From positions 1 to 22,564 of the forward strand of contig CBDBBI010000003.1 of NCBI GenBank assembly GCA_965202625.1: a stretch of DNA of 22,564 nucleotides, written 5' to 3'. Source of the stretch: a bacterium (GTDB lineage: Bacteria; UBA8248). Positions 4,941-19,771 of the stretch are shown here, piece by piece. Below the pieces are notes generated by a model, which saw only the letters and a program-made list of their open reading frames with translations, did no database searches and had not been told where the DNA came from. How positions within the stretch are numbered: position 1 is the stretch's first letter; each line of letters begins with the position of its first letter. The translations under genes were made by a program, and so were the position numbers.

Positions 4941-6242
4941 ATGACCGCACTGGACGGATGGATCGACGTTTGCCGCACGGGGAATTGGCGCGACGTTCGC
5001 GGGCACGACGTGCGCATTGACGAGGGGCGTCTGGACGCCATCGTTGCATCCCTGCGGGATGCGGACCCGGCCCCCGTCGTGGTGGGCCACCCGGAAACCG
5101 ACGCCCCTGCCTTCGCGTGGGTGGAGAGTTTGCGGCGCGTGGGGGACCGGCTCCAGGCGAAGCTGCGGGACGTCGCACCCGAATTCCGCGAGGCGGTGGA
5201 GGCGGGAAGATACGCGAAGCGCTCCATCGCCCTGCGCGGCAACCAGCTGCGGCATCTCGGATTTCTGGGTGCGGCGGCACCCGCCGTGGACGGCCTCACG
5301 CCGACGCAGTTCGCAAAAACTGACGAAGGGGTACTCGAGGTGGTCGAATTTGCGGCGGAGGGCTACGGCGTCATCGCGCGCGTCTTCCGCCGCCTGAAAA
5401 ACGCGCTCATCGCGGAGAAGGGCGAGGAGGCCGCGGATCGCATCGTTTCCGACTTCGAGATCGACATGCTCAACGAGATGGGGCGGGAGGAGGAGCGCGA
5501 CGCCCCTTCGCTCGCCTCGCGCCTCGGCTCCCGGCTGATGGTGCTGATGGAGGAGAACGAGGTATCGCCCGCGCGGCTCGCGCGAGCGATGGGGATCAAA
5601 CCGGGGACGCTTGGCGACATTCTGGACGGAAAAATCATGCGCCCGCCCGATCGTCGAATCGCGGCGGCGGCGAAGCTCCTGGGCGTGAGGGCGAAGTCGC
5701 TCATGGACTTGATCCCCCAATCATCGCTGGCGGGTGCTCCGGACGGGGCGGTGGAAGACGAGGTGGAGACGCTCGCGGCGGAGCACCGCAAGGTGGAGGA
5801 GGAGCGCAGGCAGCTGGACGCGGAGAGGGCGGAACTCTCCGCGCGCATGAAAAAACTTGAGGACGCCGAGAAGTTGCGTGCGGCGGAGGATGCGGTGGAA
5901 CCGCACGTGCGCGAAGGGCGGGTGCTTCCAGCGGAGAAACCCGCACTCGCCGCGCTTCTCGCCGCACTCAAGGAGGCGGAGGAAGTCGCCCTGGCCTCTC
6001 CCGAGGGGGAAGAGGCGAAGCGGGCACCCGCAGAGATTCTGACCGATCTGCTCGCCGCAATTCCGCCCCGCGTGGATTTTCGCGAACACGCCGAGGCACC
6101 GCTTGCGGCGGATGAGGAAAAAGACGTATCCGCCCGCGCGAAGGCGTATATGGCGCGGTGTGCTGAGGGTGGCGTCGTCATCAGCGCGGCGGAGGCGGTG
6201 GACGCCGTGCGCGCGGGCAAGGACGAGGGGGGCGGGAAGTGA
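4941..6242 (+). CDS. Mu-like prohead protease/scaffold with an inserted XRE/Cro-like HTH domain
   Basis: N-terminal GHPETDAPAFAWV...GRYAKRS...LRHLGFLGAAAPAVDGL peptidase motif, central HTH-like segment (about 5511-5717), acidic coiled-coil scaffold C-terminus. RBS AAGGAGG. Confidence 0.85.
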   Translation: MTALDGWIDVCRTGNWRDVRGHDVRIDEGRLDAIVASLRDADPAPVVVGHPETDAPAFAWVESLRRVGDRLQAKLRDVAPEFREAVEAGRYAKRSIALRGNQLRHLGFLGAAAPAVDGLTPTQFAKTDEGVLEVVEFAAEGYGVIARVFRRLKNALIAEKGEEAADRIVSDFEIDMLNEMGREEERDAPSLASRLGSRLMVLMEENEVSPARLARAMGIKPGTLGDILDGKIMRPPDRRIAAAAKLLGVRAKSLMDLIPQSSLAGAPDGAVEDEVETLAAEHRKVEEERRQLDAERAELSARMKKLEDAEKLRAAEDAVEPHVREGRVLPAEKPALAALLAALKEAEEVALASPEGEEAKRAPAEILTDLLAAIPPRVDFREHAEAPLAADEEKDVSARAKAYMARCAEGGVVISAAEAVDAVRAGKDEGGGK

Positions 6243-6604
6243 GCCTTGAGGGAAATTCCCTGCTGGAGAAGTCTTTCGTGGCGAAGGCCGACATCGACGG
6301 GTATTTGATTTTCAAACTGGACGCCGACGGGGAGGTGCTCATCGCCTCGGCGGCGGCGGACAAATCCGTGGGCGTCACCGGACGCGGCGGAGCGAAGGCG
6401 GGCGAGCACCTGGCGGGGCATCTCATCGGGCACGTTCCCGTGAAATACGGCGGCAGCGTCGCGCGCGGCGATCTGCTGACCGCCAACGCTTCGGGGCAGG
6501 CGGTCGCCACAAGTGCGGCGAACGCGCGGATCATCGGCGTTGCGATGGAAAAAGGCGTATCCGGCGACGTGGGCCAGGCGCTTCTGGTGCCTGGGCGCAT
6601 TTGA
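6239..6604 (+). CDS. Capsid cement/decoration protein (DUF2190-like)
   Basis: 121 aa, Gly/Ala-rich, GGSVARGDLLTANASGQAV and IIGVAME motifs, located between protease and capsid, GTGA overlap. Confidence 0.8.
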   Translation: MSLEGNSLLEKSFVAKADIDGYLIFKLDADGEVLIASAAADKSVGVTGRGGAKAGEHLAGHLIGHVPVKYGGSVARGDLLTANASGQAVATSAANARIIGVAMEKGVSGDVGQALLVPGRI

Positions 6605-6616
6605 GGGAACGAGAAA

Positions 6617-7579
6617 ATGACAAGGCTCGCGGAACGCCCTTTTGACCTTGATGCGCGGCGGACGCAGATCGCGCAGACGGTGATGGTGGAGAACGTCATC
6701 GCGGAGATGATCAGCCCGCGGGTGCGCGTCGATGGGCGCCTGTTCATCTACCAGACGGCGAACACGGAAGACGTCCTCACGATTCCCGACACGAAGGTGT
6801 CGCGCAAGGGGCGGCCGAACGAGGTGGAGACGGGCGCCAAGGACACGACGGAGGCTGTCGAGGACTACGCCCTTGACGACCCTGTTCCGCGGACGGATCG
6901 CACGGCGGACGGGCGCGGACGACAGACGATAGACCCGATGGACAGGGCGACCATGGTGACGGCGGGGCTGATGCGCCTCTCGCGCGAGAGGCGGGTGGCG
7001 ACGGCGTTCGCCAGCGACTCGAATTTCGAGAGCGACCTCACCAAAACGCTCTCCGGCAGCTCGCAGTGGAGCAACGCCTCCTCGCGCCCCATTCGGGAAA
7101 TCACGGACATGATGGACAAGATGCTGGTGCGGCCGAACGTTTTGATCGCCGGGCAGGAGGTGTGGACGAACCTCGCGCGGCATCCGGAAATCGTCGAGGC
7201 GATTCGCGGGACGGGTGCGGGTGCGGTGAACGCGGCGGGTCTGGTGGCGAAAGAGGCGGTCGCCGCCCTGCTGCAACTCCAGGCGATTCACGTCGGCATG
7301 GCGTGGCACAACGCGGCGAAGCCAGGGCAGTCGGCCGATTACCAGAGGCTCTGGGGCAAGGTGGCGATTCTCGCACACATTGACCCGATGCCGGTCGATA
7401 CGCGCCCCGCCATGCCTACCTTCGCCTTCACGGCGGAGCATATGCCGATGCAGACGATGACGTATTTTGATCACAACCGAGGCGCGTATGGAGCGGACAT
7501 CGTGCGCGTCTCGGAATCGGTAAAGGAAGTGTTTTCGTTCAAGCGTGCGGGTGCGCTGTTCAGGGCGGCGGTCGCCTAG
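6617..7579 (+). CDS. Major capsid protein
   Basis: 320 aa, position after cement gene, motifs ERRVA..., LSGSSQWSN.SSRPI..I, RPNVLIAGQEVW..L..HPEI and LWGKVAILAH typical of Mu-like/gpE-like capsid proteins. Confidence 0.85.
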   Translation: MTRLAERPFDLDARRTQIAQTVMVENVIAEMISPRVRVDGRLFIYQTANTEDVLTIPDTKVSRKGRPNEVETGAKDTTEAVEDYALDDPVPRTDRTADGRGRQTIDPMDRATMVTAGLMRLSRERRVATAFASDSNFESDLTKTLSGSSQWSNASSRPIREITDMMDKMLVRPNVLIAGQEVWTNLARHPEIVEAIRGTGAGAVNAAGLVAKEAVAALLQLQAIHVGMAWHNAAKPGQSADYQRLWGKVAILAHIDPMPVDTRPAMPTFAFTAEHMPMQTMTYFDHNRGAYGADIVRVSESVKEVFSFKRAGALFRAAVA

Positions 7580-7587
7580 GGAGTTTT

Positions 7588-7899
7588 TTGCGGGTGAAAT
7601 TCTACCGGGTGCTGAAAAATCTGGACCACGATCTTGAGAATTACCATCCGGGCGACTTCGTCTGGCTGGATGAAGAATCGGCCGCTTCTCTCGTTGCGGA
7701 CGGCGTCGTCCGGAAGGCGGAGCGTGCCGAGGCGATTGAGGCGGCCATCGGCGATCTCCCTCCGGGCGATGCGGCCGCGTGGACTTCGGGCGGCAAGCCG
7801 GAGGTGCGCGCTCTGCGCGAAGCGACAGGTCTTGAGAACATCACGGCTGAGGAGCGCGACGCCGCCTGGGCGCGCCACGAAGCCAAGGGAGATGAATGA
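7588..7899 (+). CDS. Small head-associated protein (Mu gp35/HI1506-like)
   Basis: N-terminal L.HD...Y.PGD.V.L domain and C-terminal WTSGGKPEVRAL...ITAEERDAAW motif, directly after the capsid gene. Start is TTG 7588 or GTG 7594. Confidence 0.7.
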   Translation: MRVKFYRVLKNLDHDLENYHPGDFVWLDEESAASLVADGVVRKAERAEAIEAAIGDLPPGDAAAWTSGGKPEVRALREATGLENITAEERDAAWARHEAKGDE

Positions 7900-19135: not shown

Positions 19136-19207
19136 ACCTCTGGAGAGAGTGATGCGCACACTTTCCAGAATCATTCATCAGACAGAATACGACAATGGAG
19201 ACTCGCT

Positions 19208-19669
19208 ATGACACGCGTTATCGCTCACGAAATGGATGGTCAATGCGCCATCACCCACACCAGCCCGTCTCACCTTCAGTCCCTCGCACAGGACGGCGTT
19301 ACGGGCGACGACGCCCTGCGCGCCGTCGCCCGCGCGGCGGGGATGGCGGATTTTATTTTGCTCGACGATTCCTCCCTGCCCGCGCTCGATGAATTCTTCA
19401 ACGCCTGGCGCATTCAGGGCGACGCTGTAGAAATCGACCTGGGCGCCGCCCGCGAGGTGAAGCGGGAGATGATTCGCACCGAGCGCGCCGAGCGATGGAC
19501 GGAGGCCGACGCGCGATACAACATCGCGCACGAATCGGGAGTGCAGGCCGACGTTCAGAGCGCCGCGCGCTATCGGCAGCGGCTGCGCGACGCGCCCGCG
19601 CATCCCGATATCGAGAGCGCGGCGGACGCGGACGCCCTCGCCGCCATCACGCTCGACGACCTGCTTTGA
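19208..19669 (+). CDS. Tail fibre assembly chaperone B (153 aa)
   Basis: C-terminal ~88 aa nearly identical to chaperone A, N-terminal part strongly diverged. RBS GGAG. Confidence 0.8.
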   Translation: MTRVIAHEMDGQCAITHTSPSHLQSLAQDGVTGDDALRAVARAAGMADFILLDDSSLPALDEFFNAWRIQGDAVEIDLGAAREVKREMIRTERAERWTEADARYNIAHESGVQADVQSAARYRQRLRDAPAHPDIESAADADALAAITLDDLL

Positions 19670-19696
19670 GGGAGTTTTGCAACGCCCTTGCATGGC
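19402..19696 (+). repeat. About 295-bp direct repeat, copy 2
   Basis: Matches 17289-17583. Confidence 0.95.
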
Positions 19697-19722
19697 CGTT
19701 TTGCGAGCCGTTTACGCCCCTG

Positions 19723-19771
19723 AAAACGGCGGATTTTCTGAGGCAAAACACCTTGGAAAATCCGCCGTTTT
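19723..19771. terminator. Strong hairpin, probable bidirectional terminator ending the structural operon
   Basis: Perfect 16-bp inverted repeat AAAACGGCGGATTTTC (19723-19738) / GAAAATCCGCCGTTTT (19756-19771), extendable by G-U pairs, between convergent genes. Confidence 0.75.

Follow-up and report, generated by a model that had tools for sequence, protein, structure and literature searches.

The window analyzed here, a 22,564-bp stretch that is in full the 22.5-kb contig C3 (CBDBBI010000003.1) of the source assembly G000 (GCA_965202625.1), holds a cluster of phage head and tail genes at 4941–19669. On balance, we judge it probable that this cluster is the head–tail half of a Mu/B3-derived lineage, acquired horizontally and recently, non-autonomous, and probably inert or silent in its present host. 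With no portal, terminase, lysis genes, promoter or activator, it is most likely an inert, non-autonomous leftover, and its genes would be intact because the import is young, not because the host has maintained them. The horizontally acquired module would comprise the late head and tail morphogenesis genes of an element of the Mu/B3 siphovirus lineage, and its carrier would be a minority variant only of an uncultured, non-proteobacterial sponge bacterium. By itself, the cluster could at most build procapsid-like shells and free flexible tails: without a portal, the head would have no nucleating vertex and the tail no docking point; without a terminase, no DNA would be packaged; and without lysis genes, nothing would be released. 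There appears to be no recognizable promoter or activator to drive it, and the gene upstream is divergent.

Gene content of the head–tail cluster

Between a gene for a beta-barrel outer membrane protein (OMP) and a dispersed host repeat, the window contains 17 structural genes and nothing else. All lie on the plus strand and none has an internal stop, as open reading frame (ORF) calls, Pfam, PHROGs and a script concur, and no cluster protein matches a portal, terminase, integrase, replication or lysis family in Pfam or PHROGs. An initial annotation, made from the letters and their translations, had described just such a co-oriented operon with these functions missing, and further details of it hold: neighboring genes overlap by 1–31 nt at eight junctions, in keeping with the translational coupling it proposed; the G/GT frameshift is preserved, with the −1 frame open to 10376 and overlapping the tape-measure start when the sequence is read directly; the operon begins cleanly at the protease, back-to-back with the minus-strand OMP gene (3930–4574); and it ends at a strong hairpin (~19722–19772; 22-bp stem, −46.7 kcal/mol, z −6.7, then a U run). 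The features are as follows (window coordinates, strand, product; MCP, major capsid protein).

4775–4940, +: leader, foreign, ~165 bp long, its AAGGAGG ribosome-binding site preceding the protease ATG
4941–6242, +: head maturation protease/scaffold, 433 aa (phrog_976, E 3.1e-64); N-terminus complete
6239–6604, +: cement/decoration-type head protein, 121 aa (Pfam Phage_cement_2; phrog_673, E 5e-23)
6617–7579, +: MCP, 320 aa (phrog_1005, E 2e-67; Pfam Phage_cap_E)
7588–7899, +: small head/neck gene, role unassigned, 103 aa (phrog_2498, E 6e-11)
7896–8306, +: Mu gp36-type head–tail adaptor, 136 aa (Pfam Phage_Mu_Gp36, E 2e-10; phrog_195)
8359–8811, +: tail terminator, 150 aa (Pfam Phage_tail_terminator, E 3.7e-14)
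8788–9118, +: tandem duplication, 158 bp (TRF: 2.1 copies, 86% matches; blastn self-match 88%), copying the 5′ end of the major tail gene
8966–9787, +: major tail protein, 273 aa (phrog_807, E 1.5e-24)
9790–10122, +: tail assembly chaperone G (Pfam Phage_TAC_4)
to 10376, +: GT, −1 frameshift extension of G, at the canonical slippery GGGAAAC (10110–10116)
10363–11580, +: tape measure protein, 405 aa (Pfam Tape_meas_lam_C; phrog_2335, phrog_23940); short, as in relatives
11577–11933, +: small tail-tip gene, 118 aa (phrog_384); 38–43% identical to relatives
11930–12427, +: minor tail protein DUF1833, 165 aa (Pfam DUF1833, E 1.6e-17; phrog_396, E 8e-23)
12427–12825, +: small tail gene, 132 aa (no Pfam/PHROG match); 37–42% identical to relatives, in which it is conserved
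12795–16343, +: J-like central tail fiber/host-specificity protein, 1182 aa (phrog_31, E 3.6e-79; Pfam Phage-tail_3, FNIII-A_GpJ)
16340–17098, +: fiber 1, 252 aa (PHROG tail-fiber matches)
17098–17556, +: fiber 1 assembly chaperone, 152 aa (phrog_20196; Phage_tail_APC)
17624–19135, +: fiber 2, 503 aa (phrog_972, E 1.7e-104), containing a 108-bp repeat (17930–18742; 7.5 copies by TRF)
19208–19669, +: fiber 2 chaperone, 153 aa

The initial naming of the first gene as a Mu-type protease stands in PHROGs (phrog_976), on which our call rests, and not in Pfam, which gives no Mu protease match and shows an XRE-type helix–turn–helix (HTH) domain instead (HTH_31, E 2e-8). This domain occupies protease residues 194–260 (window 5520–5720), between the protease domain and a C-terminal scaffold-like part; no HTH Pfam match occurs in the protease homologues of phage JBD67 or of two alphaproteobacterial relatives described below (L008, L009). 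The label "portal" that phrog_209 places on the product of 8359–8811 was rejected, Pfam identifying this product as the tail terminator. The first copy of the tandem duplication fills the gap between the terminator and major tail genes, a gap of ~50 bp in the relative L007, and the two chaperone genes are 95% identical over their final 295 bp (blastn). A promoter scan predicted no plus-strand sigma-70-like promoter upstream of the operon (4775–4940), and no Rfam family matched the window at gathering thresholds.

The cluster lies on a variant contig

The source assembly (completeness 99.7%) consists of 10 contigs: the chromosome C10 (2.92 Mb, 58.5% GC) and nine contigs of 10–24 kb, of which the window is one, complete. 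The other eight small contigs all carry chromosome-matching stretches, seven of them matching C10 directly at 95–99.8% identity and C4 doing so through C5, which itself matches C10. Judged by these matches, the small contigs read as variant versions of genome stretches in one population. C3 is a mosaic in this respect. Positions 1–374 correspond to C10 near 1.0578 Mb at 98% identity; 680–3800, a restriction–modification pair, has no C10 counterpart by blastn; 3800–4715, with the OMP gene, corresponds to C10 near 1.056 Mb at 86% (blastn); ~4775–19630, the cluster, has no match in the rest of the assembly; and 19829–22564 corresponds to C10 near 1.605–1.607 Mb at 90–99%. The two flanks thus fall 550 kb apart on the chromosome (~1.056 versus ~1.605 Mb), so that an insertion does not by itself account for the difference between carrier and main strain. 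The C10 surroundings are ordinary: the OMP gene has genes for a coiled-coil protein, a GNA1162-like lipoprotein and CsgG next to it, and the cassette array that matches the right flank has an aldo-keto reductase gene.

At the left junction, homology to C10 stops near 4772, ~165 bp before the protease ATG (pairwise alignment). The initial annotation had warned of a misassembly near 4.8–4.9 kb, and none was seen: an independently built 10,539-bp contig from public runs covers 4649–15187 with 0 differences and spans this junction, reaching 67 nt into host-type sequence and 10.4 kb into the cluster. The right junction lies inside the repeat and, like other parts of the window, is unbridged among the independent contigs listed. 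Word depth is 3.0–3.4 for C3-type pieces, uniform over 1573–19416, and ~9 for the adjacent C10-type alleles, a difference that fits a minority variant, even if contig depth does not measure cell share. Among the matches listed from a second study (labeled sponge metagenome), six cluster pieces show 0 differences, and no RNA dataset is among the listed holders of the cluster sequence.

The assembly holds no packaging partner

To characterize the cluster's possible partners, we searched all 10 contigs of the assembly. Terminase_6C, Terminase_6N, TerL_ATPase, Terminase_3 and GpA_ATPase gave 0 matches, as did the HK97-type Phage_portal (PF04860), in searches that were positive in 2–5 of 14 control genomes. 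Neither the TerL and portal of the cluster's relatives nor the JBD67 transposase A/B, Gam, Mor, holin, endolysin, TerS, TerL, portal and gpG had a tblastn match in G000; as a positive control, the JBD67 A and B queries did match two gamma- or betaproteobacterial loci (L011 and L014). The PF02914 transposase was found in 0/23 genomes of the genus, with the control genomes equally silent. Apart from short decayed chaperone pieces, G000 has no other homologue of any of the 17 genes. The assembly holds no packaging partner, and the orphan partners that the initial annotation proposed to look for came down to one gene fragment. The remaining genome of the carrier variant is not separately assembled, so a partner locus private to it would be seen only if assembled as a variant contig.

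This fragment, the sole Portal_Mu match in G000, is a 280-aa C-terminal piece (model positions 187–336) that lies 120 bp past a cellular gene. At its site, C10 2073499–2076633, the truncated portal is followed by a MuF gene and a 253-aa gene, and the cellular gene before it is RarA-like (replication-associated recombination protein A) by its best named homologues; a second MuF domain is fused within an 887-aa protein at C10 2258744–2261404. We rejected the 2.07-Mb site as the missing partner: the portal is without its approximately N-terminal half (model 1–186) and abuts a cellular gene, and the MuF resembles that of other prophages (L026–L029, to which the G000 MuF genes are 55% identical), with nothing that ties it to the relatives' split element. 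Both C10 MuF sites appear to be phage remains or fusions with MuF that have no relation to the window cluster.

Distribution and composition of the cluster

The MCP is present in 0/22 congeneric species and 0/36 genomes of the family, and sampling 60 other genomes with it returned one unrelated weak match (22% identity, E 8e-6). With a profile built from the window MCP and its six best relatives, 0/50 other species of the class matched, leaving G000 alone among 51 species, and the cluster is also absent from the main chromosome C10 of the same assembly. This distribution contradicts the initial proposal of a particle maintained by its host, as far as this genome is concerned. Among 5.8 billion clustered proteins, the exact MCP occurs on one contig and the next best is 48% identical (60 matches among 6750 candidates). 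Scans of genome and viral contigs with the single MCP found no close relative, and a 7-row alignment was needed; no near-DNA match to the cluster exists in 50,697 phage records, and plasmid records give MCP matches of 33–36% only, mostly from Pseudomonas and Klebsiella.

Composition also sets the cluster apart, at 65.7% GC and a GC3 of ~0.79 versus 59.4% and 0.69 for long host ORFs, and its right edge cuts a host cassette gene. The best named matches of the chromosomal RarA homologue are Nitrospinota and Tectomicrobia metagenome-assembled genomes (MAGs), at 69–72%; these matches, together with the small size of the class, indicate that the host is not a proteobacterium.

Relatives in sponge Alphaproteobacteria occupy two loci

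An MCP alignment scan of one genome per species returned 12 loci, eight in alphaproteobacterial/Rhodospirillales MAGs and four in beta-/gammaproteobacteria. The eight MAG species (L004–L010, L012), several of them from sponges by record names, carry relatives of the cluster whose MCPs are 45–48% and whose tail genes are 33–52% identical to those of the window, most proteins falling at 33–48%. Gene order from protease to J is kept in 6/8, L004 and L006 being seen in part on short contigs, and the L005 and L010 clusters are visibly degraded. The relatives share with the window the protease start (M-T/S-ALDGWID), a cluster size of ~14 kb and a short tape measure. Over its first 96–143 residues, and from residue 1, the window protease aligns with this clade at 68–74% identity, versus 33–36% with phages that have a full Mu-type head module. 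A tblastn alignment that seemingly ran 75 nt 5′ of the ATG at 4941 raised the possibility of a truncated protease, which we rejected: there is no real similarity in that stretch, and both proteins share the start methionine.

The cluster directly follows hisD (92–96% identical) in five species and starts there at the same protease gene. The order ABC transporter–OEP–nitroreductase–MaoC–hisD precedes it in L007, L008, L009 and L012, and nitroreductase–MaoC–hisD in L006, whose contig starts later. This upstream synteny was settled by tblastn; some upstream ORFs in L007, L009 and L012 are antisense artefacts of high GC (9/10 without a family), and the "ORFs" u121 and u393, with dN/dS >2 and stops, were not treated as genes. 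A conserved 124-aa gene precedes the protease in the relatives. A conserved intergenic stretch of ~100 nt also lies 100–200 nt upstream of the protease (L009:8280–8400; L004, L006–L008, L010, L012); it has no Rfam match in L009 and could be a candidate regulator-binding promoter region. The window resembles this stretch faintly at best, at 4770–4830, and has neither the 124-aa gene, nor most of the 100-nt element, nor the gpG-like gene that follows the MCP in the relatives. At the other end, in the closed chromosome G065, the cluster finishes with a Collar-domain fiber, followed by a peroxiredoxin gene and atpA–atpG–atpD.

The relatives' packaging genes sit elsewhere. We searched the eight genomes for Portal_Mu as two sets, with 5/5 genomes matched in each, one set also holding the L011 and L014 genomes. 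A cluster-related Portal_Mu gene was found away from the head–tail locus in 8/8, full-length (428–435-aa frame) in seven and as an 87-aa piece at a contig end in G064. It lies beside pyruvate carboxylase in 7/8 (G061–G063, G065, G071, G072, G064), the contig of G073 being too short. TerL adjoins the portal in G061, G063, G065, G071 and G072; in G062, the 7.5 kb that precede the portal showed none. The TerL–portal loci of the clade are L031–L034, L044 and L046. In G065, the head–tail and TerL–portal loci are 1.67 Mb apart. A portal of the type found in the Rhodobacter capsulatus gene transfer agent (GTA; RcGTA) exceeded the Pfam cutoff in 0/5 relatives' genomes searched. Pairwise comparison of both loci and their flanks among the MAGs (NG86; medians, n = 3–6 loci per gene) gave the following values.

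MCP: aa identity 95%, dN/dS 0.069, dS 0.41
hisD (flank): aa identity 93%, dN/dS 0.084, dS 0.44
Protease: aa identity 81%, dN/dS 0.165, dS 0.68
Major tail protein: aa identity 83%, dN/dS 0.162, dS 0.57
J: aa identity 73%, dN/dS 0.336, dS 0.59
Portal: aa identity 92%, dN/dS 0.166, dS 0.30
Pyruvate carboxylase (flank): aa identity 93%, dN/dS 0.116, dS 0.37
TerL: aa identity 86%, dN/dS 0.157, dS 0.51

Equal dS in element and flank, combined with low dN/dS, indicates vertical descent under purifying selection in the relatives, and the housekeeping flanks together with packaging genes at a second locus point to a GTA-like architecture. On these sequence features, the relatives' two-locus element is a candidate Mu/B3-derived split GTA-like system, with a presumed function to match. 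Going by titles and abstract openings, we found no description in the literature of a Mu-derived GTA, or of one with split-off TerL and portal genes, in sponge symbionts or Rhodospirillales. The window cluster is like these elements in its gene order from protease to J plus fiber, its start, its short tape measure and its length of ~14 kb; it differs in that they are vertically held, with TerL and portal at the pyruvate carboxylase locus, whereas the window copy is a partnerless, strain-specific island in an unrelated host. Its protease-first edge reads as a lineage trait, for which no selection in this host would be required. In phage Mu, the start of the late operon matches this edge.

It is possible, and we suggest it tentatively, that the cluster comes from an undescribed two-locus, Mu/B3-derived, GTA-like family and not from an infectious phage, its head–tail half having moved across phyla into a second sponge symbiont. 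Delivery by a large-headed particle of such a family would be a plausible route for this transfer.

The window cluster might itself be the working half of a split GTA-like system, with TerL, portal, lysis genes and regulators at an unassembled locus and tailed particles that package host DNA. This would be in line with the relatives, in five of which TerL and portal, beside pyruvate carboxylase, are apart from the head–tail cluster, both loci having a dN/dS of 0.07–0.34 and matching the flanking housekeeping genes in dS, and with the window's 17/17 intact genes, its retained coupling and frameshift site, and a left boundary placed as in the relatives. We regard it as unlikely, since neither a terminase nor a whole portal was found in the 10 contigs, the variant ones among them; the main strain and all 50 further species of the class are without the cluster, which leaves no sign of vertical maintenance; and the window is without the relatives' 124-aa gene, most of the 100-nt element, the gpG-like gene and a predicted upstream promoter. 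The split GTA that the initial annotation envisaged fits the nearest relatives, with their distant TerL–portal locus, and is not supported for G000, in whose assembly no terminase or whole portal was found.

Phage relatives and the capsid tree

The best phage matches to the MCP are B3-like transposable siphoviruses of Pseudomonas, at 36–37% identity over 99% of its length. B3-like phages (JBD67, PM105; Beetrevirus) share with the cluster the order protease–small head protein–MCP–adaptor–terminator–major tail–chaperone–tape measure, the Mu gp36-type adaptor and the phrog_976 protease. JBD67 differs in having its own TerS, TerL, Mu-type portal, MuF and gpG immediately before the protease (TerS–TerL–portal–MuF–gpG–protease–scaffold–MCP), as well as transposase A/B, regulators and lysis genes, none of which is in the cluster; the window's tail-tip genes (DUF1833, J-like) are lambda-like and not of the B3 type. 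As it has no transposase, portal or MuF, the cluster would not class as a Mu-type prophage; of the Mu-type head module, the protease (phrog_976) and gp36 are present.

The four beta-/gammaproteobacterial loci from the MCP scan include two with Mu-type transposase genes (L011, L014) and two betaproteobacterial ones with TerS–TerL–portal–MuF upstream of the protease (L013, L015); the window's tail genes are common to 0/4. In L011, from a Methylomicrobium sp., this head module is rearranged in another way: Mu-type transposase A/B and a gpG-like gene immediately precede the protease, on the opposite strand, and the contig also has a Mu-type portal ~22 kb from the MCP gene and oppositely oriented. 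A maximum-likelihood tree of 71 capsid proteins, from a quick search, places the window as sister to an 11-row alphaproteobacterial clade (SH-aLRT 97), the two together sitting among proteins of transposase-bearing loci; given the window's branch length of 0.85, its placement as sister is tentative. A 280–360-aa length filter dropped rows P0009 (242 aa) and P0056 (389 aa), and row P0001, the window's own protein, was also taken out.

These phages bring up the reading that the cluster arose by deletion from an infectious temperate phage of this host, possibly a transposable one, which lost its left half with an endpoint that fell by chance 165 bp before the protease. The genes directly upstream of the protease in JBD67 and the two betaproteobacterial relatives, TerS–TerL–portal–MuF(–gpG), are precisely those missing from the window, and the chaperone debris, the truncated Mu portal and the two MuF genes in the chromosome suggest that phage decay is common in this host. 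Yet no complete relative was found, the nearest MCP being 48% identical and the 50,697 phage records giving no DNA match; G000 yielded no Mu-type transposase; the whole head and tail order is common only to the split alphaproteobacterial elements and not to transposable phages; and flanks 550 kb apart on C10 are unlike a simple insertion followed by internal deletion. Taken together, these points make such a derivative rather improbable.

Comparison with gene transfer agents and tailocins

RcGTA has a terminase and a portal of the Phage_portal family inside its main cluster and an HK97-family capsid protein. The window cluster is similar to it in being a ~15-kb head and short-siphotail cluster without integrase, replication or lysis genes, with a J-like protein that bears a Phage-tail_3 domain. 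It differs in its Phage_cap_E/phrog_1005 capsid, in the Mu-type portal of its relatives and in the absence of any Phage_portal match in G000. Because capsid and portal types differ, the cluster falls outside the RcGTA family (Rhodogtaviriformidae). As summarized in PMC5026251, RcGTA also requires genes at other loci. Among the features that mark a GTA, the window shows structural genes without replication or integration genes of their own; the packaging set is missing from the assembly, in which the carrier variant is represented by variant contigs, and vertical inheritance under purifying selection across the host clade is found in the distant alphaproteobacterial clade and not in the window's host. 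The features of a cryptic prophage remnant or horizontal island are all present, namely a subset of phage genes, strain specificity, atypical composition and disrupted flanks.

In tailocins, head genes are missing and lysis and regulatory cassettes are present, and siphovirus tails are known to assemble without heads. Like F-type tailocins (flexible pyocins), the cluster is chromosomal and encodes a non-contractile tail module with fibers and chaperones; it differs in keeping five intact head genes and in having no lysis gene. With head genes present and lysis genes absent, the cluster is not a tailocin, and the tailocin-like weapon of the initial annotation finds no support, there being no regulatory cassette either. 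The wider reading of an F-type tailocin-like weapon with the head genes as passengers, or of a capsid shell without DNA that serves some cellular function, could draw on a siphotail module that is complete from terminator to two fibers with their chaperones, but is highly improbable given the intact head genes, the lack of a holin, endolysin or regulator in or beside the cluster and the lack of conservation in relatives of the host.

The right boundary repeat and the flanking genes

A dispersed host repeat forms the right boundary of the cluster. This repeat, the decayed chaperone pieces mentioned above and the flanking genes are as follows (window coordinates unless C10 is named).

19630–19828, +: dispersed host repeat, comprising the last 12 chaperone codons and ~60 nt, the hairpin and a promoter-like end, with a sharp right edge at 19828
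C10 323487–323609, 497647–497736, 616651–616782, 829487–829555: decayed chaperone pieces
C10 1324067–1324256, 1652626–1652831, 2045816–2045947: decayed chaperone pieces, continued
695–2674, −: type II restriction endonuclease-like, 659 aa, with a GHKL ATPase domain (Pfam HATPase_c_3; PADLOC REase_II, E 1.6e-88)
2678–3760, −: C5 cytosine DNA methyltransferase, 360 aa (Pfam DNA_methylase, E 5.7e-50; PADLOC MTase_II)
3930–4574, −: beta-barrel OMP gene, divergent from the operon (Pfam OMP_b-brl)
19829–21724, −: tandem genes for ~250-aa Cys-rich secreted proteins (tblastn with three intact C10 paralogues; no Pfam family)

At least 43 copies of this 100–200-bp repeat are present in G000 (C10; also C2, C7 and C9), each starting with the last 12 chaperone codons. 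The repeat also occurs at window 17512–17597, and the hairpin part is optional among copies. Its 3′ end reads as TTCGCA-N16-TACAAT, which is promoter-like in the promoter scan. This right part is found in 7/22 congeners, and the chaperone-derived left part is matched only in G000. The origin of the repeat is unexplained: a miniature inverted-repeat transposable element (MITE)-like element may have captured a gene end, or the reverse. At least seven C10 sites hold longer decayed pieces (20–70 codons) of the fiber-chaperone gene, with no other structural gene nearby.

At 19780–19828, a pair of repeats spaced by 22 bp and a sharp edge that ends in ...CA (...GGCTACA) invited comparison with a Mu-type right end and its transposase-binding sites. 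We consider this unsupported, as the same repeat part occurs in 7/22 congeners, which have no related capsid gene, no Mu transposase was found in the genus (PF02914, 0/23, weak evidence with its controls silent) and the site also reads as a promoter.

That the contig joins non-contiguous DNA through an assembly or binning artefact is very unlikely: flanks that map to C10 at ~1.056 and ~1.605 Mb and a right junction in a repeat of at least 43 copies, unbridged among the contigs listed, would allow it, but an independent contig bridges the left junction, the flanks are 86–99% identical to the same chromosome and depth is uniform at 3.0–3.4.

The neighboring genes had been described as pseudogenized, which is true on the right side and not on the left, where the restriction enzyme, methylase and OMP genes are all intact. 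On the right, one cassette gene is cut to its 5′ 25–50 codons (19829–19927), one is frameshifted (20033–20747) and one is intact (20954–21724). Arrays of these Cys-rich cassettes, with signal peptides, also lie at C10 1604664–1608077 and 829698–831471, the copies being 50–90% identical. The restriction–modification pair occupies a low-GC island (680–3800, 49.5% GC) that is absent at the corresponding place on C10, and a distant paralogous pair lies at C10 ~2.343–2.346 Mb. By tblastn, the window's OMP gene is a divergent allele (69% aa identity) of the C10 OMP gene at ~1.0556–1.0562 Mb. Elsewhere, repeats with a period of ~100 bp and 76–83% identity occur on C9 and on C10 around 0.99, 1.136, 1.957 and 2.476–2.483 Mb, and these probably encode giant repetitive proteins.

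A probable young import and the element it points to

Several observations weigh against a young and inert import. All 17 cluster genes (17/17) are intact while two neighboring host cassette genes are broken, an outcome that selection would give as well. The protease-first cluster of the nearest relatives reads as the maintained, functional half of a split system. The chaperone debris and the repeat copies suggest a long history of part of this element type in the host, which suits a one-off import badly. The cluster sequence is identical across two studies and so stable in nature, and a partner locus private to the carrier variant could have been missed. We nevertheless favor the young, horizontally acquired head–tail half. 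An intact, cleanly bounded structural operon is insufficient for calling domestication, and here distribution, partners and composition indicate a young, incomplete import.

If the relatives are indeed GTAs, they would represent an independent domestication from a Mu/B3-type siphovirus, one in which packaging and structural genes are physically split, and they would place a GTA in symbionts whose gene exchange is hard to study. The lead opened by the window is thus the two-locus element of sponge Alphaproteobacteria, which can be checked in existing sponge virome and metagenome data.

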